A stretch of DNA of 46,179 nt from a virus (IMGVR_UViG_3300030376_001764:1-46179); one strand, 5' to 3'. Positions 3,187 to 37,778 are shown, numbered from the stretch's first letter. Notes: generated by a model from the letters alone, not told the origin. Made by a program: numbers and translations.

Positions 3187-3374
3187 TTGGAAGGTGCTGC
3201 TGTTAGCGGCAGACTACATAGCGCGAGGAACTACCTGAGTTGGTAGGGTTGTGAAGCGCAAGGCGGCGGCATACTGGTCACGTTAGCGGAAATGATTATG
3301 ATTGGAAGTACGCGAAACAGAAAGAGCGGATAAATGACAATACTAGTTAACTACCAGTCCGTAACTGCTGCCTT
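3183..3374 (+). ncRNA. GC-rich structured non-coding RNA cluster of unknown family
   Basis: No ORF. Stems: GTAGT/ACTAC with CTGCTG/CGGCAG; GCGC/GCGC with CTACC/GGTAG; AAGGCGGCGG/CTGCTGCCTT with ACTGGT/ACCAGT and GTTAGC/GTTAAC. G-U pairs favour the + strand. Confidence 0.6.
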
Positions 3375-3376
3375 AT

Positions 3377-3462
3377 GGGCGTGAAATGGTTAGGGTATGA
3401 TTAAAGGCGAACTTGATTCGGCTCGATGATTACTAACGCAGGTTCGATTCCTGCCACGTCCA
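3377..3462 (+). ncRNA. tRNA-like element 2, resembling the tmRNA tRNA-like domain (G3-U70, A73)
   Basis: GGGCGTG...GCAGG-TTCGATT-CCTGC-CACGTCC-A; ATGGTTA after the 5' stem as in the other two elements; no canonical anticodon arm. Confidence 0.7.
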
Positions 3463-3467
3463 CTGTA

Positions 3468-3502
3468 TTACAAACAAAATTCATTATCTAATGGATAATA
3501 TA
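3468..3502 (+). promoter_or_regulatory. Early promoter motif copy 7
   Basis: TTACAAACAAAA-N12-TGGATAATATA; ATG at 3510. Confidence 0.8.
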
Positions 3503-7777: not shown

Positions 7778-7900
7778 ATGGGAAAAACAAAAGAGTTATT
7801 TACTAAATTAAGAGAAGAAGAATTTTTAAAAGAACACATAATTGTGTGTACTTTAAAACCTGAAGAGGCTGTGACAACAGCCCCTAATAATAAGGAGTAA
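7778..7900 (+). CDS. Small protein (40 aa, not in track)
   Basis: MGKTKELFTKLREEEF... Confidence 0.4.
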   Translation: MGKTKELFTKLREEEFLKEHIIVCTLKPEEAVTTAPNNKE

Positions 7901-8528: not shown

Positions 8529-8680
8529 AATATCCAGATGCAGATAAACACTTTTGGGCTAGTATGACAAAGAGTGTTATAAGAGTAGGAGGCTATTGTC
8601 TCATTTTTATTAACATTGAAGCAGCGGCTATGTTATTGATCGCAAGCGAAGTAATAGGAGTAGTAGAAGAATTAGTATGA
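8525..8680 (+). CDS. Small membrane protein (51 aa, not in track)
   Basis: MKYPDADKHFWASMTKSVIRVGGYCLIFINIEAAAMLLIASEVIGVVEELV; ATGA overlaps at both ends. Confidence 0.65.
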   Translation: MKYPDADKHFWASMTKSVIRVGGYCLIFINIEAAAMLLIASEVIGVVEELV

Positions 8681-9432
8681 AAAAGTACAACATACAAAAT
8701 TATATAAGGTATAAAGAAGATCTTAAAAAGTCTATGCCTGAAGTAAAATTTTACGATAAATATACTAGAAAAGAACTTATTGTAAAATTTCTACCTCTTG
8801 TAGAAAATTTAGCACGTAAGTTTTCAACAACTCAACAAGCATCAGGCGTTTTAAGTATAAATGACTTAATACAAATTGGAGCTGAGGGTTTAGTTAAAGC
8901 TGTTGATAAATTAACATGGGAAAAACTAAATGAATCTGAAGATATTGAAAAAACTTTAAAATCATTTTTTAGCAAACGTGTTAAAGGTGCTATACGTAGA
9001 CGTATTGACATGCACAGAGGTGACATACGTATTCCAGAGCATAAAATAAATGAAATACGTAAAAATCCTAAAGATAAAAAGATGGTTGAAATGTTTTTTA
9101 ACTCTATGTTTTTATCTATAGATGCTCAACCAACCAACGACGAAGGAGAGCAAATGATACATCAAATAGCAGATAAGTCAGAGCCATATAACATTGCTTT
9201 GCTAAACAGTTATTTGAAAAGCTTATTGTTAAAACACTTAAGTACAAAAGAATATGAGGTGTTACGATTAAGCTACGGACTTGACTGCGATAAGCATACG
9301 GCTAAAGAAATCGCAGCTAAATTAAAGATAGATGGCGTTAGTAATTACGTGCGTATAAGTGAGCTAAAAAAGCAAGCTGTACAAAAATTAATTGATAACG
9401 TCGATCACTCGCAAGTGATTGACTATCTGTAA
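8677..9432 (+). CDS. Phage sigma-70-family RNA polymerase sigma factor
   Basis: Region 2 LIVKFLPLVENLARKF...DLIQIGAEGLVKAVDK...KGAIRR..IRIP; region 4 LSTKEYEVLRLSYGL...TAKEIA...RISELKKQAVQKL. Confidence 0.9.
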   Translation: MKKYNIQNYIRYKEDLKKSMPEVKFYDKYTRKELIVKFLPLVENLARKFSTTQQASGVLSINDLIQIGAEGLVKAVDKLTWEKLNESEDIEKTLKSFFSKRVKGAIRRRIDMHRGDIRIPEHKINEIRKNPKDKKMVEMFFNSMFLSIDAQPTNDEGEQMIHQIADKSEPYNIALLNSYLKSLLLKHLSTKEYEVLRLSYGLDCDKHTAKEIAAKLKIDGVSNYVRISELKKQAVQKLIDNVDHSQVIDYL

Positions 9433-9495
9433 GTTAGTGATGTAAAACAGTATATTTATATGTAATTATATAAGTATACCAAATACCAAAACTTT

Positions 9496-20966: not shown

Positions 20967-23900
20967 CTATTTTTTTACTTTTCGTTTTTTTACTTTACGC
21001 TTTTTAACTTTTCTTTTCTGTGGTTTCTTTTTTTCTTCATCAATACCTATTTCCCAGTCTTGCCAACCACCAAGTAACGCTAATCTTTCCCATGTTTCAA
21101 GCTCACTATCAGACGCTTTCATAAGGTTGTTTATTTTCTTAACACCTCTGTCTATAGGTATGTTAGTTGTAGCTGATACTACATTACCAACAGCCAAATA
21201 AGCTGGATTGTCTAATCCCCAGCCACCGTTAATCATTTCGTCTTTATCCCACTTAAATGATCTTGCAGCTTGATTTATTTTAGATAATTTAGAAGATATA
21301 GGTGGGGCTATTCTTTGCAAGTCAGCACCAACCTTTTCATAGTTAGGATTATCTTTTTGTGACTCTTTAACTATACGCATTATAGCATTTTTAGTTACCG
21401 ACATGACACCACCAGCCACTCCTGTGCCTCTTAATAGAGAGTCAGCCATGCCATTAGCTATACTAATATACTTATCTTTTTTCTCTTCATCTTCTGGTTC
21501 TTCATCATCAAAAGCAAAAGCAAACAATGCTTGTTGTAACGCGTTAAACAATAAGTTCTGTACAGTAGAGTAATAAACTATTTTACTTATATTTGTTTTC
21601 CTATCACCTCTATTGTTTTTAAGATCACGTACTGACTTGTCTATTATTCTAGCATACTGTGACGGTGTGTTTTGGAAAGCTAATATTAATCTACCTAGCG
21701 GACCTGCTTGTTGCATTGATATGCGGTCTGGTCTAGCAGACTGCTGCGACTCTTCAGCGTTCTCTCTAAAATCATCAAACGCTTGAGTCTCAGCTTCAGA
21801 TTGAGACATTCCTTGTTTCATTAGAGATTTTATCCTGTTTCTATAAAACGTAGCACCGCCCGAAGCAATAGCAAAACTATCAGCAATTTGTGTAGGTGCA
21901 AAACCTAATTGTAATAATTTACTTATTACAGCTCTTGGTCCACCTTTCTTAGCCATGTCGGCAATGTCTGCTTCGTTTACATTCATACGTAATCCAGATC
22001 TTCTAGCTTTCAAGAAGTCAGAGTTTATTAATGTAGCAAAGTCTGACCAGTATTGTTTTTGATTTGCAAAAGCTTTAGCAGCAGCAAGCGGGTTATTGTC
22101 TGTGAAGTTTAAAAAGTTTACAGAAGATATTGTTTGTAGCAACGCTGACCTAGAGTTAAAGAACATGATAGCACCAATACTACCTTGCAACCAATCTGTA
22201 AATCTACCTGTTAAACTGTCATCAGAGAATCTTCTGTTACGACCAGTCTTCATACGATCTAACATATTCTCTATAGCTACACGGTATTTTTTACCGTACG
22301 CGGCTTGTAGCTTATTCATATTTTTTTCAGAGAATATAACATCAACATTGTTTTGCCATTGAGTTAAATACTTAGCTCTAACACCTGTATTTATACTTTC
22401 CTGTATGTCAGTTGTTATCGTACCAGCTGGCCAACCTTCTCTAGGTTTAGTGTATTCACCTTTTTGTATAGCAATTACTTGATCAGCAAACACTTGAAGA
22501 TCAGCGTTGTCAGCAACGTGCTCACTTAAATCTTTTAGATCTTGCTTGCTAATACCAGGAACATCATAACCTAGTTTGTTCCAAATATAAACACGCACAG
22601 CTTGCTCGCGGCTGTATGGTTCACCAGGTATTTTCTTACGTAGGTTTTTAGGTACAAAGCCTAATTGTTTTTTCAAAGCTCTGTAGTCCTGCATAACGCT
22701 AAGTCTAGCATTATCAATATCATTAACAGCTCTAGCATAAGGATCTATTAAATGTTTCTTGTACCAAGCCATTTGTGAATCACCAAGTTTACCTTTGCTT
22801 AGTGTTTCATATAACAAACCTACAAAGTCTTGAGCTGAGTATGGTATACCTCTAAACACTCTACCAAGTGACGCTCCAGCTACCTCTGCTTTTACTTTCT
22901 TGTATTCTTTTTCCGATGCAATGCCAGTTGTTTGTTCTAGTATATCGTTAAAACCTTTATCTAAAGCTTCTGACTTACTGTGTTTAACATATGCCTGTCT
23001 TACTTTTGATTTAACATCTAATACATTAAGAGCGTCTTGCACTGCTTTAACATTTTTATAAGCATCATCTGCAAAATAAAAATCATTATAACCCTCTGCA
23101 GCTTTACCTACAACCCAACGTGCTTTAGCTTCAGGTGTACTGTTACCTAATCCTACAATATTCCCAAGTGGTATATCTAGACCTATTGCTTTTAAAAACT
23201 GATGTATAGGTTCTGCAGCTGCCTGTGTTCTAGCCGTAAGAATAAATACATTATTGTTACCAAACTTTCTATTACGAGCTACGGCCTTTTCAAACATAGG
23301 ACCTTTAGCCCCTTTAGTAACTTTTTCAAACTCACTAAAATCAAACTCAGCACCTTGATCTAACAGATCTTCACCTTGTTTAGCAAACTGCTCTGCGTTT
23401 AAAACACCTTCAGTCCCGTCTGGCATAGTGTATAGTACATTAGATTTAGTTGTAGCAAGCGTGTCGTCAAAGTCCCATACGCTTATACCTTTGTTGGGCG
23501 CGTCAGCGTTACGTGAAAATCTAATTGCTTGATCTGATATAGACATAACAGCTATAGCTTCTTGCACTGGACTACCAGGAACTTGAGCCATAACTTCAAA
23601 CTGCTGGTCAGGATCAAGAGCTTCGTATGCTGTTAGTCTACCTGCCTTAACTATATCTAAGTCTGCTATTGCAGGAAACATTTGTTTAGTGACAACGTCA
23701 ACCATGCCAAACTGATCAAATGTACCTGGGTCTTCTAATCTAACACCAGGCGGTAGTTTTTTATTGTTTGATTTAGATGCCTTTAATATACTAGGAGCTA
23801 ACTTGGAAAACTCTTGTAGTTGTTGTTTAGCTTGTTGCGGCGTAATGTAACCTATTAGTTGCTGATATATAAGCTTACCTTGCTCATTAACTACAGCTTT

Positions 23901-26900
23901 ATTATTTTGTAAACTAGCAGGTACTTCTACATTATATCTTTTAGCATCAGTTATACCATCTCTAGTTCTAATGTTAGGGTTTAAAGTAAAAAACTCATTA
24001 TACTTTCTTATATCTGAAGAAGGTACTTTACTAAAATCACCTGTTTTAAATGCTTTATCTAGCGCCTGCTTTAAATACGGATGCTCTTGCGCTTTAGCTT
24101 TCCAACCTTCATATACACCATCAACAACACCTTGTGTAGGTTTACCTGTAACTTCTTGATAATAATTATTATCAGCCCATTGCAACCAATTGTTTACTAT
24201 ATTAGGATCGCCTGTTTTAAACGCTTGTAAAGTTCGTTTAGCCCAATTACCAAACTGGTAAACATGTTCTTCCCAAGTGTTTTCTTTTGGTTTTAAGTTT
24301 GTTTCTATAGACGTTACTGTAGCAAACTTTCTACCAAAACTAGTATTAGCATTCTGATTGTACAAAAGTTCACGTACTGGTATAATATTTTTAGGATCAG
24401 CTTGAACCGCTTTAAATAAAGCTTCTAGTATTAAACGTCTACCACGTTTTATAGAGTCTTTCCTTGCTTCGTTTTTACCCATGCTAGCCCTAGTCTGACT
24501 AGAAGTTGCAGCGGCTACATCTTTAACTTGCTCAAGCGACAACAACTGAACTGCTTGATCAATTTCTTTACGAACAAACTCGAGATCCATAACCTCGTTT
24601 GCTTCTAATGCTTGGTCTGTTTCTGGTATAAACCTTTGAGTTCTTTGTCTGTTTCCTATAAATCTAAAACCTCTACCTATAGCGCCACTAGTTTTTCTAC
24701 TGCCAACAGCGGAATTGCCAGCGCCAGCTACATCACCAGGTTTTATAATTTTTGTAACATCTCTACCTAAATACTTAGGTAATTCTACTGTTAAAAAATC
24801 TTTAAACTGTTTATTACCTTCAGGCGTAAACGGAAGACGTCCACCAACTATAGTTTCTATTTCAGCATTAATACCTTTTTTAGGTTTAGCTTTTGCTTTA
24901 CTAAATTTAGCACCAGCTCTAGCTCTTTCAGGTTTGATAGGTATAAGATCTTCAACCATACGGTTTCTGATGCTAGTGTTTAAAAACCCTCGTATAGTTT
25001 GACTAGTTTGATCTCTATAAATAGGTTTAACGGCTATTTGTCTAATAAGATCTAAGTAATTTTTTAATGTACCTGTTAACTCACCATCTGTATATAAAGC
25101 GTTCATTACATTATTAGGTATAAACGTAGCTTTACCAAAGTCATCTTTAGTTTTTGGTAATCTAGCAAAATCACTAGCAGCATTGTCTATTAAGTATTGC
25201 TTTATACGAGTTAAACCTTCAGCATCTTTTTTAGAGTAGTTACGTTTCTTGTCATATATAGTTTCTGGATTTACACCAAACATCTTACCGTATATCTCTG
25301 CGACAGCAACTGGTACGTTTTTAGTTTGACCAAATCTTGTAATGTCTTGACCCTCAAACGCTTTGTTAGTAGCATCTGATATTTGTTTTTCAGCTTCAGC
25401 TTTATTTTCTACACCTAAATTACTTAATACTGTATCGCTAAATATAGTTGTTTCGGTAGGTTTTCTTGGGCCTTTAGGTTTTTCAGTAACTTCAACATCT
25501 GTTTCCTCTGCTATAACGCCTCTAGCCTCTGTAACGTCCTCTGTAAACTCTTCACCTAAAACTCTATTAGATGCTTCAATAGCTCTAGCTGGTAAAAACT
25601 TATTTATGTAAGCTGCTAGCGGTACACCTGAATCAGGATCATATTCACTAATTAAATCTATTATACCACGCTGCCCTGTTTCTATTTCATCAGTAAGCAA
25701 CTGTCTATCAAACCCTGGTGCTTCAGATCTGCGCTCAACTATTTTGCTAGTGATAGGTTTAAACTGTTCTATTATTTCAAACGCTCCAGCTACACCTTGC
25801 TGATCATATATTTCTTGAACACGCTGTGAAGCCTCTTCAGATCTTGACTCTTTAATTATTTGCTCGTCGGCTTGTTGCTCCGCTTGTGGTATTAATTCAC
25901 CTTCTGCACCCTCTTCAGCTACGGCTTGCTGAGCTGTAGTAATACCACCTTTTTCTAAACTATTGTTATAATCTTTAATAAAGTTATATACGTCTCTACC
26001 TTTGTTAAACTTTACTTTAACACCAAAGTTTTTCTGTAAAGCTCTACGAACTTTATCACCTATCTTGGTGTATATACCTTCATCAAATTTAATATCACCT
26101 GTAGCTAACGCATCTGAAAACAACGTAAGCGCTTCTTCCATTTGCACTTCTATTTTGTCATCTTTATATAACTCCATGCGTTGTTTAAACTTGCTGTCTT
26201 TTATTTGATCGACATCAATTTTATTTAACTCGTCTAATAAAGCGTTACCTAAATTTATAGATGCTACTGGATTATTCTTTAAAGTTTCATACAATATATA
26301 ATGTAAAAACTCATGCGCAGCAACGTTTACAGCTTGCTCATTTAAAGCAACTTCTTTATTTATAACTATAGTGTTTGGTTTACCATCTACACCAGGTATA
26401 AAAAACCCTTGTTGACCAGCAGACTCTTTAACGTCTACGTTAGGGTTATCTTGTTTAATTAAAAAGTTTTCTACTTCTGAAGTATTATCAAATACTTCAA
26501 AATCTAATTGATCAACATCTTCTGTTTCTTTTTTAACTTTTGCTAGTTTGCCATAAAACTCTTCAGCTGTATTTCTTATGTTAAATATTTCTTGTGCAGC
26601 TTGCTCTTGCGCTGTCTCTAAACCATCTATTATACTAGCTTTCTGATCGTCAGTTAAATTGTCAGCTGCTTTAGTGGCATCGATCTCTGCGTTTACCGAT
26701 GTTAGTATATCATAGTTTTGATTTACTATTTCTATTTGTTGATCTGAAAGCGTACCCATCAAATCATCATTAGCATCTACAGCTGCAGTTAGTTTCTCTC
26801 TAATCTCTACTTGTGCAGTATTAATTGCTTTAAGTTGAGCTGCTGTTATGTTTTTAGAATATTTAGCTTTGTCTAACTGATGCAGTTCTGACAGTAAACC

Positions 26901-28529
26901 TTGTATTCTTTTGTGCTCTTGTGGTGTCTTTATAGCGTTACTAGCTTTAAGATAATCACCAGTCAATATCACACTACCAGAACCAAAAGCGCCTTTTAAA
27001 CCAGACTCAAAAGCTTCAGGCGTAAAAAAATCACCAGTTGCTTTTATAACAGAATCTCTATAGTTCATACCTTGAGAAGCGTACTGGTTAAATTGCTGAG
27101 TACTATATTGGAGCATTTCTTGGAATCCGTTTTTACCCATTACCATTGCCGTAGCCGCGTATTTTTGCTGCGCAGCCATTGGCAATCTGTTAAAGTATTT
27201 AGTAATTACTTCAAACCTAGTCCACTCTGATCCTAATTCTAAAGCTGTAGAAACTATAGCTGGTGTCATTGTAAAATTACCAGATTCTACAAGCTCACCT
27301 GGTGTTAAACCTTGTTTTTCTGCCTGTATATCTATGCTTTCATTAAGAGCGTTAGCAAATAAATTTATAAATAATCCTGGAGGTTGTTGAGCTCCTGTTG
27401 TAGCAACAGCCATTGCGCCATCAATAACCCCAGCTAATCCTCCTAAAGCATATTGAAAAACCCCATCTTTTTCTTTTAACCTATCAAACCTTTGTGTTGG
27501 TAAATAGTAAGAATCTTTTTTATTTAAATTCAATCTAGCTTGTTCTAGCTTTTTTAAGTTTTTCTTTTGTAACTCTGGCGAAACATTTTGAGTTCCAAGA
27601 AAATGCCAAAGATATTCAAACTGATCGTCAATGTTTGCAATAGTTGTTAAGCTATTACTCATCGTGTTGTATAAAGATCTAGTAAAATCTATATCTATTT
27701 TATTGTCTGCGTAAAGTCTATTGTATTGTTCTCTTCTATCTTGCTGACCTTCACTTAGTTTTTGTATAGCATCAAGACCTTCTGATGCAGTACCTAGTGT
27801 AGCAACGTTGGCTAGGTTTCTAGTTATATCATTAGCAAAAAAATTGACTATATCATTAGATATATTTTTTTCAAAGCTATTATATTTTTCTGATAATTCT
27901 TCTTTAGTTAGTTTTTTACCAATAACAGTTACCTCGTCTAGAGGTACTCCTTCAGCTCTCGTGCCTACTAGTTCACCATCTACAATAAATGGTACAGGTG
28001 CTAAGTAAGCTGCACCATCTTTAACGTAACTTCTAGACTCAGGAACAGGGACGTCAGGATTAAAAGCTTCGTCATCAAACTCTAGTAAATCATCAGCCGA
28101 AGAAATGCCTTCCTGTAATATTTGATTACGACGTTTTGTTAGTTCGTTGTATTGAAAAATACGTTTAGGTGAATCTAATGGAGTTATTTTACCATCAGTT
28201 CCTGCAATACTAGCTATACGATTATCTATTTCTCTAACGTCATTTACTCCACCTAGATCTATTACAATATCTTCTTGTGCCCAGCTAGGGTTTTTAGATG
28301 GATCAAATGGATCTGGTGATTCCGAAGAAGTATCTACCGAGTCTGATTCCGTAGTCTCGGGTGCTTGCCCGGTTGTCGGTGTTACAGTTGCACCCTTGTC
28401 CGCAACACCGTTTGTCTTTCCCTCTTCTTCTTCTACAACTTCTACAGCGTCAGGAAAAGTATCTTTAAACTCTTTTACTTTATCTTCTGGAAGATCGTAA
28501 ATAGTTTCACCAACTTTAAATGTAAACAT
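20967..28529 (-). CDS. Giant internal virion/ejection protein (2520 aa) with zincin HExxH, sigma-70 region-2-like and HAD phosphatase domains
   Basis: Last and largest of three ORFs after the tail/GNAT genes; AAHEFLH (aa about 739), YDPDSGVPLAAY (aa about 914-990), WDFDDTL...LTAR...K...FADD (aa about 1686 onward). Confidence 0.8.
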   Translation of the reverse strand: MFTFKVGETIYDLPEDKVKEFKDTFPDAVEVVEEEEGKTNGVADKGATVTPTTGQAPETTESDSVDTSSESPDPFDPSKNPSWAQEDIVIDLGGVNDVREIDNRIASIAGTDGKITPLDSPKRIFQYNELTKRRNQILQEGISSADDLLEFDDEAFNPDVPVPESRSYVKDGAAYLAPVPFIVDGELVGTRAEGVPLDEVTVIGKKLTKEELSEKYNSFEKNISNDIVNFFANDITRNLANVATLGTASEGLDAIQKLSEGQQDRREQYNRLYADNKIDIDFTRSLYNTMSNSLTTIANIDDQFEYLWHFLGTQNVSPELQKKNLKKLEQARLNLNKKDSYYLPTQRFDRLKEKDGVFQYALGGLAGVIDGAMAVATTGAQQPPGLFINLFANALNESIDIQAEKQGLTPGELVESGNFTMTPAIVSTALELGSEWTRFEVITKYFNRLPMAAQQKYAATAMVMGKNGFQEMLQYSTQQFNQYASQGMNYRDSVIKATGDFFTPEAFESGLKGAFGSGSVILTGDYLKASNAIKTPQEHKRIQGLLSELHQLDKAKYSKNITAAQLKAINTAQVEIREKLTAAVDANDDLMGTLSDQQIEIVNQNYDILTSVNAEIDATKAADNLTDDQKASIIDGLETAQEQAAQEIFNIRNTAEEFYGKLAKVKKETEDVDQLDFEVFDNTSEVENFLIKQDNPNVDVKESAGQQGFFIPGVDGKPNTIVINKEVALNEQAVNVAAHEFLHYILYETLKNNPVASINLGNALLDELNKIDVDQIKDSKFKQRMELYKDDKIEVQMEEALTLFSDALATGDIKFDEGIYTKIGDKVRRALQKNFGVKVKFNKGRDVYNFIKDYNNSLEKGGITTAQQAVAEEGAEGELIPQAEQQADEQIIKESRSEEASQRVQEIYDQQGVAGAFEIIEQFKPITSKIVERRSEAPGFDRQLLTDEIETGQRGIIDLISEYDPDSGVPLAAYINKFLPARAIEASNRVLGEEFTEDVTEARGVIAEETDVEVTEKPKGPRKPTETTIFSDTVLSNLGVENKAEAEKQISDATNKAFEGQDITRFGQTKNVPVAVAEIYGKMFGVNPETIYDKKRNYSKKDAEGLTRIKQYLIDNAASDFARLPKTKDDFGKATFIPNNVMNALYTDGELTGTLKNYLDLIRQIAVKPIYRDQTSQTIRGFLNTSIRNRMVEDLIPIKPERARAGAKFSKAKAKPKKGINAEIETIVGGRLPFTPEGNKQFKDFLTVELPKYLGRDVTKIIKPGDVAGAGNSAVGSRKTSGAIGRGFRFIGNRQRTQRFIPETDQALEANEVMDLEFVRKEIDQAVQLLSLEQVKDVAAATSSQTRASMGKNEARKDSIKRGRRLILEALFKAVQADPKNIIPVRELLYNQNANTSFGRKFATVTSIETNLKPKENTWEEHVYQFGNWAKRTLQAFKTGDPNIVNNWLQWADNNYYQEVTGKPTQGVVDGVYEGWKAKAQEHPYLKQALDKAFKTGDFSKVPSSDIRKYNEFFTLNPNIRTRDGITDAKRYNVEVPASLQNNKAVVNEQGKLIYQQLIGYITPQQAKQQLQEFSKLAPSILKASKSNNKKLPPGVRLEDPGTFDQFGMVDVVTKQMFPAIADLDIVKAGRLTAYEALDPDQQFEVMAQVPGSPVQEAIAVMSISDQAIRFSRNADAPNKGISVWDFDDTLATTKSNVLYTMPDGTEGVLNAEQFAKQGEDLLDQGAEFDFSEFEKVTKGAKGPMFEKAVARNRKFGNNNVFILTARTQAAAEPIHQFLKAIGLDIPLGNIVGLGNSTPEAKARWVVGKAAEGYNDFYFADDAYKNVKAVQDALNVLDVKSKVRQAYVKHSKSEALDKGFNDILEQTTGIASEKEYKKVKAEVAGASLGRVFRGIPYSAQDFVGLLYETLSKGKLGDSQMAWYKKHLIDPYARAVNDIDNARLSVMQDYRALKKQLGFVPKNLRKKIPGEPYSREQAVRVYIWNKLGYDVPGISKQDLKDLSEHVADNADLQVFADQVIAIQKGEYTKPREGWPAGTITTDIQESINTGVRAKYLTQWQNNVDVIFSEKNMNKLQAAYGKKYRVAIENMLDRMKTGRNRRFSDDSLTGRFTDWLQGSIGAIMFFNSRSALLQTISSVNFLNFTDNNPLAAAKAFANQKQYWSDFATLINSDFLKARRSGLRMNVNEADIADMAKKGGPRAVISKLLQLGFAPTQIADSFAIASGGATFYRNRIKSLMKQGMSQSEAETQAFDDFRENAEESQQSARPDRISMQQAGPLGRLILAFQNTPSQYARIIDKSVRDLKNNRGDRKTNISKIVYYSTVQNLLFNALQQALFAFAFDDEEPEDEEKKDKYISIANGMADSLLRGTGVAGGVMSVTKNAIMRIVKESQKDNPNYEKVGADLQRIAPPISSKLSKINQAARSFKWDKDEMINGGWGLDNPAYLAVGNVVSATTNIPIDRGVKKINNLMKASDSELETWERLALLGGWQDWEIGIDEEKKKPQKRKVKKRKVKKRKVKK

Positions 28530-28541: not shown

Positions 28542-30206
28542 TTATTTTCTAACGTATGGAAAAAATTGATTAGCGGCAGAACTAACAACTTTATTAGCAT
28601 CGGTATCTTTTATACCCATGGCTTGCATTAGTATTTTCTTTTTCTGAGCTGGATCCATATAAGGATATATTTCAAGTCCGCCTACTTCTATGCTTTCTAG
28701 CTCATCGTCTGTACCGTATTCATCAAGACCTTCTATACCTAGATTTCTAGCTATTCTAAGAGTACTTTGTAAGTCTGTAAGATCAGCAACATCTATTCTT
28801 TCGTCTAAGTCTTTTAGTGTTTTTTGATAATCTGCTCTTCTTATTTCACCTTCAGTAGGTTTTTTATCGTCCTCAGGTCTTTGTTTTCTACGGCGCTCTT
28901 CTTTTGTTTTAGTATAGTAAATTTTACTTTCACCAGCAATTAAAGGATTTTGTTCTTCGTACTCTGGAAACTCTTCTTTGTATCTAGCAACGTCCTGTTC
29001 TGTAGCTGTTCTAGTTTCAACCTGTTTGTTACCAAACATTCTTATTAAGTCGTTATGCTCAAGACTGTCTTTTATAAATTGTATTTGGCTAGTTTCACCT
29101 TTGCCTATCCAATCTTCTTTAGCAAAAGATTTACCTAAATTATATTTTATATACTTAAGCTGTTCGTCTAAAGGCATTTGCAATAAACCTTTAGCTTTAC
29201 TATCTAACATAGACTTGTACGTAATGTCTTCCGTAAGCATTTCTACGTTAAAGTGTCTTTCTGTGGTAACTATTTCGTCATCACCTTGAGGGTTTATTGA
29301 TATTATAGAATTAGAATTAAAGCCTTTACCTGTTGGCGTGTCTTGATCGTTAAGAAAACCAGATGTACGCAGCGCATCGTTGGTGTCAATTAATTCAGGT
29401 AATTTAGTAATTAAACCATTGCCATTAGCCCATTTGTCTACATCTCTAGACCAAATAAAATTAGCATCTGAATCTTCTAAATCATAAGCTTCTTTTAAAG
29501 ATGCCCATACATCACTATTTGTGTCCATCTGAACAGACACATTCATAATATTTTTATAGCTACCATCATCTTGTCTAACCCTTTCTAGCTTTTTATGAAT
29601 GCCACTAGACGCGTTTCTGTTTAACAATGATTCAGCTACAACTAAGTTTTGATACTCTTCTTTACCCTCACCAAGTATATCAAACCCATTAGTGCCATCA
29701 AAGTTACCTATATCAAAAGCCTTTTGCTCTTTTAAAGGTGTTAACCCGCTAATTATTTTACCTGTTTGATTTAATGTGGTTGTCTGATATGTCTGTGCAT
29801 TGTTAACTATATTAGAATAAGCTATACGCTCAGCGCTTGTTAGTTCAGGATTAAGAGCTAGTTCTGTTTGAGCGTCAATAGCACCTATACTATACTCAAC
29901 CCCATCGTGTATATATGGCTCACCGGTTTCTAACAAACCTATAGCAGTTTGTTTAAATTGCTGCAAAAAGTCTGGATCCGTTATACTAGAAGATGTTTCG
30001 TTTAAGTCTTTAAGATGTTGTAGCGTAGCTTTGTTTTTATAAAGCTGTTTAGCTTGCCTTTGTTTTTCTACTAAAGCTATTTGTTTTTGTTTAGCCTCTT
30101 GAACTTCTTTAAATATATTTGAAAAAGCATCTGAGCTTTCTTGAAAAGATTTAATATACATGTCTGCAGAGCGATCTAATATTACTTGTGGATTTCTATA
30201 ACTCAT
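28542..30206 (-). CDS. Putative internal virion protein (554 aa)
   Basis: Position between the pilot-like and giant proteins; helical N-terminus. Confidence 0.55.
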   Translation of the reverse strand: MSYRNPQVILDRSADMYIKSFQESSDAFSNIFKEVQEAKQKQIALVEKQRQAKQLYKNKATLQHLKDLNETSSSITDPDFLQQFKQTAIGLLETGEPYIHDGVEYSIGAIDAQTELALNPELTSAERIAYSNIVNNAQTYQTTTLNQTGKIISGLTPLKEQKAFDIGNFDGTNGFDILGEGKEEYQNLVVAESLLNRNASSGIHKKLERVRQDDGSYKNIMNVSVQMDTNSDVWASLKEAYDLEDSDANFIWSRDVDKWANGNGLITKLPELIDTNDALRTSGFLNDQDTPTGKGFNSNSIISINPQGDDEIVTTERHFNVEMLTEDITYKSMLDSKAKGLLQMPLDEQLKYIKYNLGKSFAKEDWIGKGETSQIQFIKDSLEHNDLIRMFGNKQVETRTATEQDVARYKEEFPEYEEQNPLIAGESKIYYTKTKEERRRKQRPEDDKKPTEGEIRRADYQKTLKDLDERIDVADLTDLQSTLRIARNLGIEGLDEYGTDDELESIEVGGLEIYPYMDPAQKKKILMQAMGIKDTDANKVVSSAANQFFPYVRK

Positions 30207-30218
30207 AATTATTTTTTT

Positions 30219-30947
30219 TTAAGCACCCCCCGTGGCTAAACCTCCAAGCACATCGCCAACACCACTAGCAACCCCACCCCAAGCAGCTGCTTTAGCTTGA
30301 TTTGAAGAAGCTTGTTGAGCTCTTGCTTGATCTTGTTGACCGGATGCTCTATCTAAATCAGCGTTAATACGATTTTCTTCGTTAGCAAAAACAAATGCTT
30401 TACCTTCTGCCTCAGCAGCCTGTACTCTTCTACCTTCAGACATGGCTACATTTTGTACTCTTTGTTGTTCTGCAATTCTTTGTTGTTGTAGGTTTGCTTC
30501 ACCTTGCGCTCTAGCTTTTTCGTTGCTAGCTTCTTGAGCTTCAATACTAGATGCAATACCTTTTTTACTTTGTAAAGCCGCTTGAGCAAGGGCAGTTGCA
30601 CCACCAGCACTAGCACCAGTCGCTCTAAGCGTGTCTAGTGTGTTTGCTAAAGCGATATCAGCTTGTTCGGCTTGCATTTCAGCTGCTTGAGTTGCTACGC
30701 CTAACTGAGCAAACGGATTACTCATTTGCGAACTTAAATCTTTAGCCATAGCCGATAAATCAGTTACGCCTTCATAAGGATTTATAACGTCACCTCTACT
30801 GGCTTTTAAACTATCTATTTCTGCTTGAGCCCTTTCAGCCGCGTTTTTAGCTCTATCAGCGGCTTTGTCAGCTTGGTTAGCTGCCACGGCTCCACCTATA
30901 ACTTTAGCGCCAATCGCTCCTACGGCTAATGCTGTTATTGCTCCCAT
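30219..30947 (-). CDS. Ala/Gln-rich pilot/ejection protein (242 aa)
   Basis: Gly/Ala hydrophobic termini flanking a long A/Q coiled coil. Confidence 0.65.
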   Translation of the reverse strand: MGAITALAVGAIGAKVIGGAVAANQADKAADRAKNAAERAQAEIDSLKASRGDVINPYEGVTDLSAMAKDLSSQMSNPFAQLGVATQAAEMQAEQADIALANTLDTLRATGASAGGATALAQAALQSKKGIASSIEAQEASNEKARAQGEANLQQQRIAEQQRVQNVAMSEGRRVQAAEAEGKAFVFANEENRINADLDRASGQQDQARAQQASSNQAKAAAWGGVASGVGDVLGGLATGGA

Positions 30948-31361: not shown

Positions 31362-32924
31362 TTAATAACTTGATTCCACGTATTCAGATGATGCAGCAAA
31401 TAATTCTCTAGCAACTCCACCTTGACCAACCACTTGTGTTAGGTCGTCTGTTTCTATAGTTACAGTAGAATAATAACCTTTTACCCCTGACATACTGCCA
31501 CCAAAAACAACCTCAGCTGTAGTTGGACTGCTATCGTTTATTAAGTTAGCTACATACTTACCTTCTTTTTTATAAAAACCAGAATAAACTCTAGGGTAAG
31601 GAGGGTTTTCAACTCCAAAAACATCTTCATAACTAGCTTGCAATATAGCTTTGTTGTAGTTAGGGTTAGTTGCTCCGTTAACAAGCTGTCTAGGATCTAT
31701 TACATATTGACCTTCATCATAGCTTGTAATAGGTAAAGCTGTATCATTTACTTCAAAAGACCGGGCGCCTTTAAAACTAGATACTTCCCAGCCGGTTGAG
31801 CCTTCATAATTTATTGTTTTAAAAACTTTAGAAGCGCTTACGTTTGGGTTGAATATAAATGTTATTTTAGAGGGAGAATAAAGACCGTAAAATTTAGATC
31901 TGTTAGATTCACCAGGTTGCTCAGCATTATGCTCCCATATAGTACCGCTTTTTACAGTATAAAACTTACTTTTAATACTAAAAATTTGTTCTGGTTTGTA
32001 AGTATATCTACCAGTCCAACCTAAAACTTGTTCATCAAAAGAAAGTGTTTGATATGTATCGTCGTTAGCATCATCGCCGTCACCGCCTTCTTGAGTAGGC
32101 GTTACATTAGTACCTTGTAAGCTAAGAACATATTGCTTTGTATATATATCCCAGCCACCTATAATTTCACCTTTAGTGTTAACATCTGAGCTTATATTGT
32201 TTAGTTCATCTCTAAAGTAATCAATCATACCATAGTTAGATATCTCTGTAATACCGTCTTGAGAAAGTCTTAATATAGCATTTCTATCTTTGTCTGCAAA
32301 GTATTTTCTATAACCATATACAGCAAAGCTTTTAGGGTCTTTACTTATACCAAAATTACCAGCGTAAGGTACAATTTGACCTATAACTAATCTTAGTTGA
32401 CTTACAGCTGTAGCATCACCTTCGGCTGAATATATAGCATCTTTATCTATAAGCGCTCTATTAACTTTATTTTCTTGGAATATAATTAAGTTAGTATCTT
32501 CAGCATATAATTTTTGTATACTACCAAGAGCAGGATCAAGAGCTTTGGTTATGTCTTCACCTACACTAAACACGTTAGTATCATTAACACCTGTTCTAGA
32601 GTTGAATACGCCAGAATAAATAAGAGCTGAAATTCTAAAACTAGCGTTAGGTTCATCATCTACTAAATAAGCTTTAACGCCGTATAACATTTCAGTTTCA
32701 TTATAACCACCTTCTATACGAGATTCCTCTATAACCCAAGACTTATCAGCCTTAACTTTGTCGTTTGTTGTTGTTGTGTATATAGGAAAAGCTCCAGCCG
32801 TACCAGGCGCTACACCTGTAGATCCATTCCAAACTACTTTGTTTGGAGCAGATCCATTTGTGTCTGTAACTGTTTTTCTAAGTAAAAACGAATTATAAAA
32901 TTTAACTTCTACTACTGCAGGCAT
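31362..32924 (-). CDS. Tail nozzle/stabilisation protein, C-terminal part
   Basis: Beta-propeller-like GISKDPKSFA..G...YFAD...LRLS.DGITEIS; KVFKTI.YEG; KKEGKY. Confidence 0.65.
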   Translation of the reverse strand: MPAVVEVKFYNSFLLRKTVTDTNGSAPNKVVWNGSTGVAPGTAGAFPIYTTTTNDKVKADKSWVIEESRIEGGYNETEMLYGVKAYLVDDEPNASFRISALIYSGVFNSRTGVNDTNVFSVGEDITKALDPALGSIQKLYAEDTNLIIFQENKVNRALIDKDAIYSAEGDATAVSQLRLVIGQIVPYAGNFGISKDPKSFAVYGYRKYFADKDRNAILRLSQDGITEISNYGMIDYFRDELNNISSDVNTKGEIIGGWDIYTKQYVLSLQGTNVTPTQEGGDGDDANDDTYQTLSFDEQVLGWTGRYTYKPEQIFSIKSKFYTVKSGTIWEHNAEQPGESNRSKFYGLYSPSKITFIFNPNVSASKVFKTINYEGSTGWEVSSFKGARSFEVNDTALPITSYDEGQYVIDPRQLVNGATNPNYNKAILQASYEDVFGVENPPYPRVYSGFYKKEGKYVANLINDSSPTTAEVVFGGSMSGVKGYYSTVTIETDDLTQVVGQGGVARELFAASSEYVESSY

Positions 32925-32927
32925 TTT

Positions 32928-35900
32928 TTACTTTTTAAAATTTTTCACGTCGCTATTAGTTATATCACTACTATCAGTACTAACAGCATCAAGTGAGTCA
33001 AAGCAGGGTCCATTTATAATCATACCGTGATCATATTGTTTGTATATTTGAGGTGCTATAACTAGTAGATAAGATCCGTCTCTAGTTTGTTCTGGGTTGT
33101 TTATATTAATACCTGACGCTTCGTTATAACGATCCACTCTTCTTATTCTAGCAAAACCTTTCATGCTATTATTTGTAATTCTATCTATTATATTTTCATA
33201 TTCTTGAGTTTTTTGAAAAGGAATCAATAATTCAGGATCTGCAAACAAACCAAATATTTCATCAAAATCACTTAACTGACCTGATATTTCACTTGATTCT
33301 GCTTGAGTTTTATTTGGCGTAAATAAATATCTAGCAGCTGGAGAAGCGGAATATAAAGTTAATCCTGGAGCAAACATTGCCAAATCACATGTAGGCTCAC
33401 TGTTGCTTACACCTATTATGCTAGTTTGATATTGGTATACGTTTGTGTTAGCCATTCCTTTTAATATACTTCCGTAAGAAGCGTTTGTAAAATCTCCTAT
33501 TTCATAATTAAAACTTGTAGAAGGATCAGGACTTTGACCACATTTAGCGCCAGAAAACGTAAACGCATTGTAGTTATTGTATAAGTTTCCAAAAGCTACC
33601 CTGTACTCTCCGGGTTCGTTTAAAACAAAAATTCTACCTCCTGGACCAGGCAGCATAGCCGCGTACGTAAAAGCTTCTTCAGGGCCTGCTGTGTTTGTTT
33701 TTCCAACACTAGTAGACCCAGACATATTAATCATTCTTAATCGATTGGTTAATATATTAGATGATGGATCTTCAGCTGTCATACCTTTTAATTTAACGTT
33801 ACCGCCTGAATCTACATCGTTTTCATATAAGTTACCGTAAACGCAATTATCATCATTAACGTCTTTCGCTATAGACCAGGGTTGGTTTTCGTTTTCTCTG
33901 TATTCTATAGCTGCATACATACCAGCTTCTGTTCGTAATTCTGCGCCACCACTTTGACCTCCTGTCATAGCTTGGTTAAGTTGGCATAAAACATAAAACA
34001 TACTTGATGGGTTTTCTACTGGTTTAGACTTAAACGCTCTAGCGTAATAAACGGCGTCGTTTTCAGAGTCTTCTTCTGGACAAACTTTACCTTCAACGGT
34101 AACATTTGTTTCGTTATTTAAATTAGCAATAGTGTAACCTACTTGATTAGATTCTGGTATAACATTATAGCTATCTAAATTATCTAAATCTTCTACAAAA
34201 AACTCTACTGATCCATCACCTTGTATTAAACTTGAGTCAACACTTGTTATAGGTAAACCTACTGCAGTATTGTTTGATCTACTAATGTTACACATGTAGT
34301 CAACAAGCGAAGGTACACATATGTTTTGAACAATATCTTTATATGTTCTAGATAAACCAGTTCCGTTTGTGTCAGTAACAGTTATATCATACATATAAGT
34401 ACCAAAGTTAGGCTGAGCATCTGATGCTAATTCTACTCTGCCTCCAGCATTTCCTCTATTTATCATTTTGCTAGCTTGTAAAACTTCAGCTCTTGAATTT
34501 ATAGGTTTAGCGGCAACAGTTGTTATTCTAAATTCAGTGTTATAGCCTTGGGCGCTTGGGCCTCTAATATTGCTTATTTGATAAGTTAAACCTTCTCTAT
34601 TTCTTTCTGGGTCAGCAGAGCCGTTAAAATTTTCATAAAGTCGTAACAAAGTAGTTGCTTTATAATGTCTAGCTATTTTAGCTTCTTCTGTGCTAAATTC
34701 CAAATAAGGTTCTACATTAGTAATTTGAAAAGGAAACTCATCAGTTTCTACAGGTACTATTGTAGTAAAAACAGGACCAATAGTTTCAACCGTAAAACTA
34801 AATTGAAATTGATTCACTGGATTTATATTATCGTTTGCTGAAGGTTCAAAATAAAAATAACTTTCATCTTTTACAATAAGATCAAATGACGTACCCCCTT
34901 GTTGTTTTAATTCAATCTTAAGATCTGATCCAGTTAACTCTTTACCGTTACCATCAAAGACTGTTAGGTCTACATTACCAACAGCAAGCTTGTCTCCATT
35001 TTCATCAACAAAATAAAAATCATCACCTTTAATTAAACTATCACCAGGCGTTACGCTTTCTGGGCAAAAGAAATCAAAGTTTCTAATACCAGCAGGACCG
35101 CTAACACCTTGATCTATAGCTATGTTTAAATCTTCTATTAAACCTGATGAAGTAGTTTCCCAAAATATATCAAGTTTAGATACAGTGGGTGCTGTTTCTA
35201 AAACCGCTAAATTTTCTATTTTTAAATAACCAACATTTGAAAAAGTTAAAGTAGTTCCACTAGCAATAGTTCCTTGACTTTTATTAAATGTAACAACGTT
35301 GTTAGTTCCGTCATATAATACTACATAGGTATCGGGAGATATATTAGTACCAGTGACTAATTGACCGGGTTTTATTTCTAAACCAGCTTGGTTGTTTGTT
35401 AAATCAAAACTAGCGTCAGCAGTACCTCCAATATCAACATCAGCAGTTCCAACCGTTGTGGTAATTTTTTGGTTGTTAATACCAAACTGAAAATCAGAGC
35501 TTTGCGATGTAATAAACTCTGCTACAAAAGGATTAGAATCTGCTTTATAAAAAGAGTAAAAAGGACTAACAGGATTTGTTACAAAAATAGTTCGATCTAC
35601 AACATCTTCAAATTGACTAACGTCAAACAAATCAAATAGATCTTCTATATTATTTGTAGTAAACTCTGATCTACCTGGAGAACCGTCGTTAGCTTCAGAG
35701 AATTGCTCGTTACCATCTACAACAAACTCGTTAGCGGTGTTCATTACCCTACCATAAAGCTTCACTGAACTTCTAAAAGTTTTATCTTGAGGTCCAACTT
35801 CAGATAAATCTCTAGGTATTTTATTGATATTGTCGTTTAAAAGAGTTATAAAAGAAGTGTTTTCTTCTACAGGAGAAGCGCTTGTGGGAGGTAACGATGT

Positions 35901-37778
35901 AATATAATTAAACGGTAGATCTTTCATAGCGCCTGCAGAGTAAACATTGTAATAGTCTTGCTCTACCTGCTTAACAACTATTTTGTAACTGTACCAACCA
36001 AGAGGGTTATAGTCTACATCGTCAACATTTCCGTTATACAAACCTGGCTCACCATCTTGTCTTGGTGTAGATTTACCACCAATAGCGCTATTAAATTGTA
36101 CTTTTAAAGAGTTACCTAAAAAATTCCACATAAACTCCGAGTCGTTAGAATCTTCTTTGCTATAAGGTAAATAAACTGTGTCAGCTTTAAACCCTTCTGT
36201 AGTAGCTGTAGACTCGTTATTTGATAGTATAACCGTAGATTGTCTACCAAACTTATCAGATAAAACTACACCAACTTGATAGTTTCTATTTTCTTTTACG
36301 TTGCTAGATGGGTACTCTACAGTACCTAAACTAGAGCCAACATCATTTGCTTCTAACTTTCTTGTTGCAGAAACTTGGTAGTTGATGCCTGTTGGCGGAG
36401 TATGTTTGTCTTGAAAATTACCATATATAATTCTATTAGAAGAAACTTCTTGAGAAAAAGCTTTTACTGGTGTTTTATCATAAACTCTAACTAACTCAGA
36501 CTCAGGTAAAGTCTTGTATGGTTTAGTAGAAACATAATCAAAACTAAAATAATTAGAGCCTTGAGCTGCCGCAGCTATATCTCTAACACTAACAGTTTCT
36601 ACAACTTGTACAGCTAATGCGTCTGATTCTTTATAAATAATATCTAATTCTGATATTTTATAAGAATTTTTTATATTGTCTGCTCTATCTGGTAAAGGTA
36701 TTTGAAGCGTTATTTTGTTTACTTTATTTTTAGCAAAATCAACTACAGTGCTAGAAAAAGTTTGTTTTTCATCTCCTTCTAAAAAATAACCGTCTTGTTT
36801 CGGAATGAAACACGCTTGCGTAAATGGAGCTAGTATAGAATATTCACCATCATCAAATCTAAATCTATAGCTAAATTTAGCAAATTTATCTTCTAAAAAA
36901 TTAGGATCTCCTCGAAAATTAAATTCGTAAAAAGGGTTTGTTGAACCATCAGGTAATGTTTCAGATACAGCATCAAACATAGATGTTTGAGTGTAGAAAA
37001 AATTAAGTTGATTACCAACATCTAATGTAACTTGTCTATTAAAAGTGATTATATTTTCTGCAGAATCTACATCAGCAACTACAACTTGATCTAATTCGTT
37101 TTGTATGTACTGAGGTGAAGATAAACAAAAACCTGGTAAAACATCAGTCGTGCTATTAACATGTACGTTTATTGTGTTTTCAGCTTTTTGTGTAACTTGA
37201 ACTGGAGTGGTTATAGTAACTTGTTGGCTAGATTTATTGTAAACATTTATAGCTAAGTAAGGATTATATTTAGCTACAGATATCTGATCTTCTGTAGTAT
37301 AATAACCTAACTCTTGATCTACGTTTATTTTTCTTGGCTGATTTCTATTGTCAGTAAAAAACAATAATTGTTCTAGTAAGTTAACACCTATTATTGGAAA
37401 CTTAGGATGAAAATTTAAAAAAGCACCCTCAACAAGAAGCTCAATACCGTCTTTATCAGACCATCTAAATACATAGTTTTTAGCCTCAGGATTATATTTA
37501 GTTCCTGAGTTTAGTTGATTAGTTGTAAAAAACAAATAAACTTTACTATTAGTTTGATCTACAAAATGACCAACACAAAATAAAGTTTCGTCTACAAAAC
37601 TAGAAAAATCACCAACATTAATGTTACCTTGTATATTTTCTAACGCACCTACGTCTTCACTTTCAGATTTAATAACTTGAACGTTTACAGCATCTCTATA
37701 TTCTCCATTAGGTAAAAGCCTAGAATCTAAGTCTTTATTCATCTTAGATTTTAGGAAAGAATTTTTAACTTCAGCCAT
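32928..37778 (-). CDS. Large tail nozzle/stabilisation protein (1616 aa)
   Basis: N-terminal MNKDLDSRLLPNGEYRDAVN, LFFTDNRNQPRKIN, FSYRFRFDDGEYS, NRIIYGNF: recalled from crAss-like tail proteins. Confidence 0.7.
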   Translation of the reverse strand: MAEVKNSFLKSKMNKDLDSRLLPNGEYRDAVNVQVIKSESEDVGALENIQGNINVGDFSSFVDETLFCVGHFVDQTNSKVYLFFTTNQLNSGTKYNPEAKNYVFRWSDKDGIELLVEGAFLNFHPKFPIIGVNLLEQLLFFTDNRNQPRKINVDQELGYYTTEDQISVAKYNPYLAINVYNKSSQQVTITTPVQVTQKAENTINVHVNSTTDVLPGFCLSSPQYIQNELDQVVVADVDSAENIITFNRQVTLDVGNQLNFFYTQTSMFDAVSETLPDGSTNPFYEFNFRGDPNFLEDKFAKFSYRFRFDDGEYSILAPFTQACFIPKQDGYFLEGDEKQTFSSTVVDFAKNKVNKITLQIPLPDRADNIKNSYKISELDIIYKESDALAVQVVETVSVRDIAAAAQGSNYFSFDYVSTKPYKTLPESELVRVYDKTPVKAFSQEVSSNRIIYGNFQDKHTPPTGINYQVSATRKLEANDVGSSLGTVEYPSSNVKENRNYQVGVVLSDKFGRQSTVILSNNESTATTEGFKADTVYLPYSKEDSNDSEFMWNFLGNSLKVQFNSAIGGKSTPRQDGEPGLYNGNVDDVDYNPLGWYSYKIVVKQVEQDYYNVYSAGAMKDLPFNYITSLPPTSASPVEENTSFITLLNDNINKIPRDLSEVGPQDKTFRSSVKLYGRVMNTANEFVVDGNEQFSEANDGSPGRSEFTTNNIEDLFDLFDVSQFEDVVDRTIFVTNPVSPFYSFYKADSNPFVAEFITSQSSDFQFGINNQKITTTVGTADVDIGGTADASFDLTNNQAGLEIKPGQLVTGTNISPDTYVVLYDGTNNVVTFNKSQGTIASGTTLTFSNVGYLKIENLAVLETAPTVSKLDIFWETTSSGLIEDLNIAIDQGVSGPAGIRNFDFFCPESVTPGDSLIKGDDFYFVDENGDKLAVGNVDLTVFDGNGKELTGSDLKIELKQQGGTSFDLIVKDESYFYFEPSANDNINPVNQFQFSFTVETIGPVFTTIVPVETDEFPFQITNVEPYLEFSTEEAKIARHYKATTLLRLYENFNGSADPERNREGLTYQISNIRGPSAQGYNTEFRITTVAAKPINSRAEVLQASKMINRGNAGGRVELASDAQPNFGTYMYDITVTDTNGTGLSRTYKDIVQNICVPSLVDYMCNISRSNNTAVGLPITSVDSSLIQGDGSVEFFVEDLDNLDSYNVIPESNQVGYTIANLNNETNVTVEGKVCPEEDSENDAVYYARAFKSKPVENPSSMFYVLCQLNQAMTGGQSGGAELRTEAGMYAAIEYRENENQPWSIAKDVNDDNCVYGNLYENDVDSGGNVKLKGMTAEDPSSNILTNRLRMINMSGSTSVGKTNTAGPEEAFTYAAMLPGPGGRIFVLNEPGEYRVAFGNLYNNYNAFTFSGAKCGQSPDPSTSFNYEIGDFTNASYGSILKGMANTNVYQYQTSIIGVSNSEPTCDLAMFAPGLTLYSASPAARYLFTPNKTQAESSEISGQLSDFDEIFGLFADPELLIPFQKTQEYENIIDRITNNSMKGFARIRRVDRYNEASGININNPEQTRDGSYLLVIAPQIYKQYDHGMIINGPCFDSLDAVSTDSSDITNSDVKNFKK

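Follow-up and report, generated by a model that had tools for sequence, protein, structure and literature searches.

Phages are known to start early transcription with the host holoenzyme or with a packaged polymerase. SPO1 gp28 is one of the sigma factors that phages encode, and in SigI-type sigmas as well as in the RNA-guided sigma complex a sigma-2 domain is combined with a non-standard part that targets upstream DNA. Here, a 2520-residue protein encoded in a virus record of 46,179 bases (IMGVR_UViG_3300030376_001764:1-46179; this whole stretch is referred to as the window) was analysed, following an earlier note that had proposed a sigma-factor-like domain inside it. The results indicate that amino acids (aa) 897-1207 of this giant protein are probably a virion-delivered sigma factor, in which a second domain, dom2, takes the position of region 4. 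Searches of the open-licence literature listed no account of a sigma factor packaged in virions.

Among the closest described systems are the virion RNA polymerases of crAss-like phages (phi14:2 gp66; crAss001 gp47/49/50) and of N4. They resemble the present locus in that a large cargo gene follows the muzzle gene and a pair of small cargo genes, and in their proposed task of starting early transcription (10.1101/2020.03.07.982082; PMC10172136). In crAss001, cargo and virion-polymerase genes occupy the slot of the giant gene (PMC10172136). Unlike in these systems, no catalytic motif of the DFDGD/DFDID type was found in the giant protein and no polymerase family matched it (Pfam, PHROG), in agreement with the earlier note; the protein would need the host core enzyme and would act in a rifampicin-sensitive manner. 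The polymerase motif was also not found in three of the five complete relatives, and the other two gave chance-like matches in unrelated open reading frames (ORFs). In addition, the early transcripts of phi14:2 are described, in the available part of that report, as lacking a common upstream motif (10.1101/2020.03.07.982082), whereas the early block of the window has seven copies of one.

The phage sigmas T4 gp55, which acts with gp33, and those of jumbo phages are likewise used with the host core, and T4 combines a partial sigma with a separate partner; in contrast to the protein proposed here, they are synthesised in the infected cell and serve middle or late genes, and none is described as packaged in the available part of the source (PMC7824862). 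Sigmas of the extracytoplasmic function (ECF) group are built from regions 2 and 4, and their connector runs through the polymerase (PMC6372665), and the present unit is similar in having two domains joined by a short connector. The SigI-type sigmas (8i24) and the RNA-guided sigma complex (9n9q) differ in being cellular and stand-alone. Finally, polyvalent proteins with a zincin-like metallopeptidase are, like the giant protein, large and multidomain, with an HExxH domain and swappable modules (PMC5512222); the giant protein also has a HAD domain, and its modules differ between relatives. Self-processing by the zincins has been proposed for them (Iyer et al. 2017, PMC5512222), and the word sigma was not found in the main text of that paper.

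A predicted sigma-2-like fold and its neighbour dom2

The ORF and the peptides quoted in the earlier note are present in the window: the gene occupies 20967-28529 on the minus strand, the segment 25190-25850 corresponds to aa 894-1113, and the peptide EIIEQFK begins at aa 918. The region is divided as follows.

25551..25841, minus strand: sigma domain 2-like fold, aa 897-993, regions 1.2-2.4 (predicted structure and conservation, weak sequence support)
25470..25550, minus strand: acidic low-confidence linker, aa 994-1020, candidate counterpart of the R2-R4 connector of ECF sigmas (pLDDT <50; 10 D/E vs. 3 K/R)
24942..25469, minus strand: dom2, aa 1021-1196, variable helical domain of type A, putative reader of upstream promoter elements (pLDDT 89.8, pTM 0.86; co-variation)

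An AlphaFold2 model of aa 897-993, built on an alignment of 38 rows, reached a pLDDT of about 90, and the prediction showed two confident parts with a disordered linker between them. Of the 50 rows listed by a structure comparison with 48,161 chains, the top 25 were without exception sigma domains or sigma-bearing entries. The best match was SigB (8x6g_H; Z 8.7, root-mean-square deviation 3.0, 86 residues aligned, the helix of region 1.2 included), sigma32 (8hkc, Z 8.2), sigma28 (6pmj, Z 7.9), the SigI-type sigma 8i24 and the RNA-guided sigma complex 9n9q were further matches, and the first clearly unrelated natural chain appeared at Z 5.4. Z values below about 13 are common for helical bundles by chance, so that the weight rests on the uniform sigma identity of the top rows and not on Z. 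The likeness to domain 2 of the sigma-70 family (group 3 and ECF; SigB, sigma32, sigma28 and sigma-K, 8vjl) comprises the predicted 1.2-2.4 fold and a gap-free alignment to sigma-K across regions 2.2-2.3. Within these regions G955 and Y963 were conserved in 22/22 and Y974 in 18/22 cases, with F in three more, and L971 is conserved as well; the conserved aromatic and glycine positions presumably have roles in core binding and promoter melting. A complex prediction with the sigma-2 alignment and Flavobacterium beta-prime 1-345 scored 0.57, with one control at 0.51, which counts neither for nor against core binding.

The sequence searches gave weaker results. In a profile search of PDB sequences, sigma-K (8vjl_B) was second of 23 rows with a weak E of 0.63 over 80 residues, and a language-model search returned the Sigma70_r2 cluster at 0.93, at a low count of 126/256 shared features. 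BLASTP against the phage's own stand-alone sigma (E 0.30, 11/43 identical) and profile-profile comparison of the sigma-2-like domain (probabilities of 1.6% and 8.8%) remained at chance level. Profile searches of PDB sequences with the alignments A2 and A4 listed chance matches first. A homolog search with A4 yielded 45 short proteins, all pieces of the family, among them no annotated sigma family and one with the source name 'sigma subunit'. A Foldseek search with the two-domain model gave no match at E 0.001; WhiG came first in PDB and phage sigmas ranked high in BFVD. The outcome of the A4 homolog search and the following results argue against a sigma factor at this level: Pfam Sigma70_r2 (PF04542) gave no match at E up to 1 or 10 for the fragment, for 18/18 aligned members or for 29/29 divergent versions; a family search of five complete relatives found as sigma only the stand-alone one; and a broad profile placed syntaxin above RpoS. 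The domain also departs from the sigma-70 family in lying below the family cut-offs, in its position inside a 2520-aa protein of the virion module, and in being followed by a 175-residue second domain without a region 4 score. Thus, the likeness claimed in the earlier note was borne out by the predicted fold (Z 8.7, 25 top rows) but not by sequence (no Pfam match, BLASTP E 0.30), and the sigma-like domain is real by predicted fold, not by family score.

A generic four-helix bundle resembling sigma by chance, or a protein that is not ejected, would leave the domain without a role in transcription. Such an explanation would fit a Z of 8.7 within the chance range of helical proteins, an alignment of 38 rows and the lack of Pfam support; however, all 25 top rows are sigma entries, two independent weak searches point to the sigma family, and the gene is syntenic with structural genes, which makes this explanation very improbable.

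The second part of the earlier claim, a region-4-like helix-turn-helix (HTH) about 80 aa further, was not supported. No Sigma70_r4 match was obtained (Pfam), profile-profile comparison with the stand-alone sigma gave E 0.55, and the peptide lies inside dom2, a separate domain of about 175 residues. dom2 is basic (isoelectric point 9.0), and the sigma-2 domain and the linker are acidic; the linker is net negative in 109/110 relatives, and the giant protein as a whole is near charge balance (356 D/E, 329 K/R). With dom2 alone, the best structural match had Z 3.9 among 48,161 chains and sigma region 4 was not among the 50 rows listed, Foldseek gave no match at E 0.001, and language-model matches reached at most 0.84, with low recognition; these null searches neither prove a new fold nor exclude region 4.

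Early motifs and their co-variation with dom2

225, 466, 858, 1551, 2268, 2943 and 3468 (225..3500), plus strand: seven copies of the early motif TTACARAC-N-TGGATAATA, putative early promoters (fixed spacing, all on the coding strand)
8677..9432, plus strand: stand-alone 251-aa sigma factor with regions 2 and 4 (PHROG 351, E 1.5e-20; Pfam r2 and r4 just under cut-off)

The early motif spans 32 bases in three parts, TACAAA, a middle part and GGATAATA. It has seven exact matches ahead of early genes and none in 100 shuffles. The flavobacterial sigmaA box is given as TAnnTTTG in the available part of the source (PMC9723704); the motif lacks this box on the sense strand, in line with the earlier proposal of non-host early promoters, and a scan for the sigma-70 consensus was at chance level (56 vs. 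51). An estimated 1300 or so stretches carry the motif, some of them by chance. Small shares of RNA runs, in the form of assembled contigs only, were consulted; four cover 27-30 of 30 bins with sequence of relatives, and no start sites were visible in them. In two relatives the replication block contains an early-type copy, downstream of the gene for the stand-alone sigma (L343, G050:C1:8602; L347, G054:C1:5764).

Co-variation was analysed in 44 genomes, comprising the window, 13 relatives gathered by protein and 30 gathered by motif. The motif-gathered set derives from 33 long records chosen by eye from 150 loci, of which three were dropped. The rows left out of the analysis as a whole were G006, G025 and G032 (no site in short stretch), G042 and G060 (no giant-gene match), G063 (gene cut by the contig end), L163 and L178. 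For the area under the curve (AUC) and the approximately unbiased (AU) tests, 11/44 genomes with fewer than three sites were excluded.

A related sequence occupies the sigma-2 slot in 44/44 genomes, in 42 by a broad profile into which many of them had been built and in G049 and G065 by eye only. A narrow sigma-2 profile matched in 15/33 motif-bearing records vs. 0/15 controls, the latter being records with a lone chance-like motif match; the C-terminal part of the giant protein was matched in 31/33. Members of the main family share 66-98% identity in the sigma-2 domain while their dom2 falls into types that are 20-40% alike, and distant genomes have very different sigma-2-like sequences in the same slot. 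One sigma-2 type was paired with four dom2 types; the two domains assort freely.

The motif followed dom2. Where dom2 was of type A (11 genomes), TACAAA was followed by YAAA at 60/60 sites, with ACG at 8/60, and in the 33 non-A genomes ACG was present at 138/143 sites and YAAA at 14/143. The rule had been written on the first 14 genomes; among the later 30, dom2 was of type A in 4/5 ACG-negative and 1/25 ACG-positive records. Type A was first assigned by eye and corresponds to a supported clade on the dom2 tree (98, 10 rows). Sliding segments with their start at aa 1001-1151 separated eight ACG-negative from 24 ACG-positive genomes with an AUC of 0.97-0.99, as compared to 0.64-0.73 for sigma-2 segments, 0.82 for the stand-alone sigma, 0.83 for the ligase, 0.85 for denV and 0.41 for the HTH gene. 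On the dom2 tree, loss of ACG needs two changes and YAAA one, whereas the sigma-2 (dom1) tree requires more (7-8 vs. 1-2). A single clade of ACG-negative genomes was rejected on the trees of the stand-alone sigma (p 0.012), the HTH gene (2.7e-5) and the C-terminal part (1.3e-5) and not rejected on the dom2 tree (p 0.084); all trees were quick ones without a mixture model. The motifs adjoin the stand-alone sigma gene and lie more than 20 kb from dom2, yet they track dom2. Co-variation of domain and motif, which the earlier note had put forward as a check, was therefore seen for the giant protein and not for the stand-alone sigma, but the co-varying part is dom2 and not the sigma-2 domain. The co-variation is sharp in place and thin in independent events.

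Several observations weigh against a sigma factor that reads these promoters. The HAD region of the giant protein also reached an AUC of 0.84-0.91, and a single ACG-negative clade was not rejected on the poorly resolved sigma-2 (dom1) tree either (p 0.085). One genome with type-A dom2, G061, has ACG at 6/7 sites, and the non-A genomes G012, G018 and G068 lack it at 2/5, 1/1 and 1/1 sites. No more than three of the contrasts are independent (sign test p 0.25). A DNA-binding fold could not be assigned to the window's dom2, and the stand-alone sigma, found in 24/24 near-complete relatives, could read the invariant motif elements. Sigma-2 versions less than 25% alike share the same GGATAATA, and strict base reading by the sigma-2 domain is therefore hard to square with the data, an argument qualified by the selection of the second genome set on the GGATAATA-bearing motif. 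In addition, the tripartite motif of phi14:2, with its -35/-10-like blocks, is described as being transcribed by a host-type holoenzyme in the available part of the report (10.1101/2020.03.07.982082).

Some of these observations would be explained if the giant protein acted as an activator or sigma appropriator: dom2 would bind the motifs, the host holoenzyme, or later the stand-alone sigma, would open the promoter, and the sigma-2 fold would be only a tether, or a competitor displacing the host sigma. The best argument for such an arrangement is that very different sigma-2 versions go with one -10 element, together with the phi14:2 precedent, and it agrees with dom2 rather than the sigma-2 domain tracking the motif. 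However, conservation extends to the entire 1.2-2.4 fold and its aromatic positions, domain order and linker fit the ECF layout, and the motif is without TAnnTTTG, and we regard this possibility as unlikely.

The small number of independent contrasts would also fit a counter-defence cargo, in which the host or stand-alone sigma reads the motif unaided, the sigma-2 module serves as an anti-sigma sponge, decoy or shut-off factor, and the link between dom2 and motif reflects shared ancestry. The non-A genomes G012 and G018 are neighbours of type-A genomes in the tree of the sigma, and their motifs are A-like, but one clade was rejected on three other gene trees and the AUC peak on dom2 is sharp. 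Such a cargo therefore appears quite unlikely.

Proposed packaging and release, and a possible two-sigma cascade

20967..28529, minus strand: 2520-aa multidomain protein, last gene of the virion module, putative ejected cargo (follows portal, capsid, ring, muzzle and small genes)
25950..26432, minus strand: HExxH-bearing region resembling zincin metallopeptidases, about aa 700-860, candidate for a self-processing protease (HEFLH in the sequence)
22950..23510, minus strand: HAD-type phosphatase domain, aa 1674-1860 (PHROG 415, E 6.5e-5; DFDDT motif in the sequence)
25842..25853, minus strand: aa 893-896, linker motif KESR, a candidate cut site immediately ahead of the sigma-2-like domain
24897..24908, minus strand: aa 1208-1211, linker motif KFSK, a candidate cut site that follows dom2
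28542..30947, minus strand: genes of 554 aa and 242 aa upstream of the giant gene, candidate small cargo or channel proteins
31362..37778, minus strand: muzzle-like tail genes (PF25729 crAss_MUZ_C, E 5.8e-11; PHROG 14478)

On the minus strand of the window are the genes for portal, capsid, ring and muzzle, together with three small genes and that of the 2520-aa protein, and the muzzle-like genes place this virion module among those of crAss-like podophages. The giant protein is encoded after the muzzle and the small cargo genes, as is the ejected cargo of crAss-like virions. In phi38:1 the gene order is identical (gp97-gp101), with a muzzle, three small genes and a giant gene all annotated as structural; the profile of the 242-aa gene matches phi38:1 gp99 (E 6.4e-7), and the layout of the 554-aa and 242-aa genes was set against gp45-gp46 of crAss001. 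From this synteny with structural and cargo genes we infer that the giant protein is packaged and ejected. The cultured relatives (Panino, elemoF, the Manatee Spring record and phi38:1) gave no clear sigma-2 match, the Manatee score being marginal. It also counts against the proposal that their giant proteins, being without a sigma-2-like domain, place the question outside the reach of virion proteomics.

The zincin region has a weak match to Peptidase_M78 (Pfam, E 0.18), its HExxH is kept in 14/15 divergent relatives, and its profile matches elemoF gp18, a giant protein annotated as structural (E 2.4e-9). Linker motifs of the K-F-S-K kind were counted in 110 of 141 new representatives that had enough flank, using a pattern defined after looking at the alignments: they occurred within 15 residues before the sigma-2 domain in 33/110 relatives (3.9 in shuffles), just after dom2 in 73/110 (7.1 in shuffles) and between the two domains in 7/110 (3.2 in shuffles). 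The motifs bracket a unit of about 315 residues, the size of a sigma factor, suggesting that the zincin domain may release this unit by cutting at them.

According to the sigma factor model, the giant protein would be ejected from the virion and cut at the linker motifs by its own zincin domain, which would free the 315-residue unit. The predicted sigma-2 fold would then dock on the host core RNA polymerase and open the GGATAAT element, the acidic linker would thread through the polymerase as in ECF sigmas, and dom2 would recognise the upstream portion of each of the seven early motifs. Early transcription would reach the stand-alone sigma gene, whose product may then serve a second class of promoters, for which candidates were found.

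7854..7879, plus strand: TAAA-N-GTRA, second motif class, ahead of the HTH-sigma operon; a candidate target for the stand-alone sigma
9443..9470, plus strand: second motif class upstream of the ERF/replication operon

In the window and in five complete relatives, TAAA-N-GTRA stands in front of some late genes as well as of the HTH-sigma and ERF operons, and a TGTGAC core is located 37-40 nt ahead of the same gene both in the window and in 4/5 complete relatives. In the window alone there were three matches vs. 0.41 (1/100 shuffles), with the pattern made after looking and one match lying in a coding region. Further forms of this class are TAAA-N-TGTRA and TGTGAC-N3-AGC, and copies also occur at 40102 and at 30, both on the minus strand; the copy at 30 points leftwards off the record, toward what are late genes in complete relatives. 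The second class is thus a candidate target for the stand-alone sigma and is compatible with a cascade, and a separate motif class for this sigma also speaks against its reading the early motif as part of a counter-defence arrangement. Of the two-sigma cascade outlined in the earlier note, the second sigma at 8677-9432 is well established (PHROG 351, E 1.5e-20) and its own candidate motif class is present, but the statistics of that class are weak.

Directly upstream of the stand-alone sigma gene, at 7908-8528, a 206-aa protein with a C-terminal HTH is encoded, which is present in 38/43 relatives and does not track the early motif. G056 and G040 have two diverged copies of the stand-alone sigma near both record ends and may be chimeric assemblies.

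Relatives of the giant protein are abundant (1029 proteins), and the family comprises 322 clusters at 50% identity. Many of them have extra modules, either a P-loop kinase (PF06414, PF13671) or LysM. The stretch aa 1212-1670 (24897 to 23510 in the window) is a hypervariable middle part present in only 28-67 of 120 close relatives and without a family match. Within the cargo cluster, a GNAT-like 135-aa gene (30949-31356; Pfam E 0.13) takes the slot of phi38:1 gp98, which is annotated as structural. A 134-aa lysine-rich protein (20267-20671) is encoded directly after the giant gene, ahead of peptidase-like and holin-like genes.

The plus strand of the window holds, in order, small early genes, a ligase, the HTH gene, the 251-aa sigma, ERF, an exonuclease, a primase-helicase, a thymidylate synthase and a ribonucleotide reductase. 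Complete relatives measure 60-70 kb and are thus about 15-20 kb longer than the window. Primase-helicase, ligase and reductase are encoded, but DNA polymerase gave no match in the ORFs scanned (28 of the window against Pfam; 20/45 of G061 against PHROGs). For capsid and portal, the nearest cultured proteins are those of the flavobacterial phages elemo, Panino, phi38:1 and phi19:3 (30-46% identity), and the host is therefore probably a flavobacterium.

Motif copies in bacterial chromosomes and implications of the proposed packaged sigma

A species-genome collection contained 29 stretches with an exact copy of the 22-base non-A motif, most of them short or phage-like contigs. Three single copies are located in long flavobacterial chromosomal contigs (G084, G085 and G086), which supports the assignment of the host. 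The G084 copy (L433:8324-9335; G084:C2:984323) precedes a 293-aa accessory gene with a TerB domain between recG and parA; this gene was not found at full strength in 40 relatives and has a weak PADLOC match (PDC-S48, E 0.0004). The G085 copy (L434:8181; G085:C2:160149) is near a tRNA-linked integrase island and the near-identical G086 copy (L435:4274; G086:C1:4274) resembles it in preceding a short signal-peptide-like ORF. The ORFs beside the three copies had no match to the phage DNA compared. G085 has a second copy with one mismatch (C2:141676), and an integrase, a ParB-methyltransferase and tRNA-Met are nearby; a copy with two mismatches is present in a small mobile-looking stretch (L437:1501; G089:C6:10873) with excisionase-like and Rep-like ORFs by eye.

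A host-like regulon was not found, with 1-2 sites per genome in three flavobacterial genomes. When up to three mismatches were allowed, 4/40 relatives had a match vs. four control matches, i.e., background, and there is therefore no host regulon. Perfect motif copies in three bacterial chromosomes would be compatible with a host sigma that reads the motif unaided, as the counter-defence explanation supposes, but these copies are single and stand before accessory genes and not in a regulon. They may represent host genes triggered by the phage, or leftover phage DNA. A bolder scenario, which we consider doubtful, would be that some flavobacterial hosts trap the injected, self-released 315-residue sigma, in which region 4 is replaced by an unrelated swappable reader: a perfect copy of the early promoter before an accessory gene, such as the TerB gene of G084, would be switched on only by the injected sigma.

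What the present analysis adds is that the link to the promoter was narrowed down to dom2, that a unit of sigma size was delimited, and that motif copies were located in host chromosomes. The co-variation makes the idea of a virion-delivered sigma testable with defined parts, i.e., one 315-residue fragment, a 32-base motif and a predicted swap of specificity. If true, a packaged sigma would be a third route into early transcription, requiring a cargo of about 35 kDa as compared to about 250 kDa, and private promoters would be active before any phage protein is made. If hosts do trap the injected sigma, an arms race between phage and host would explain the shuffling of both domains and the change of promoter in one lineage.

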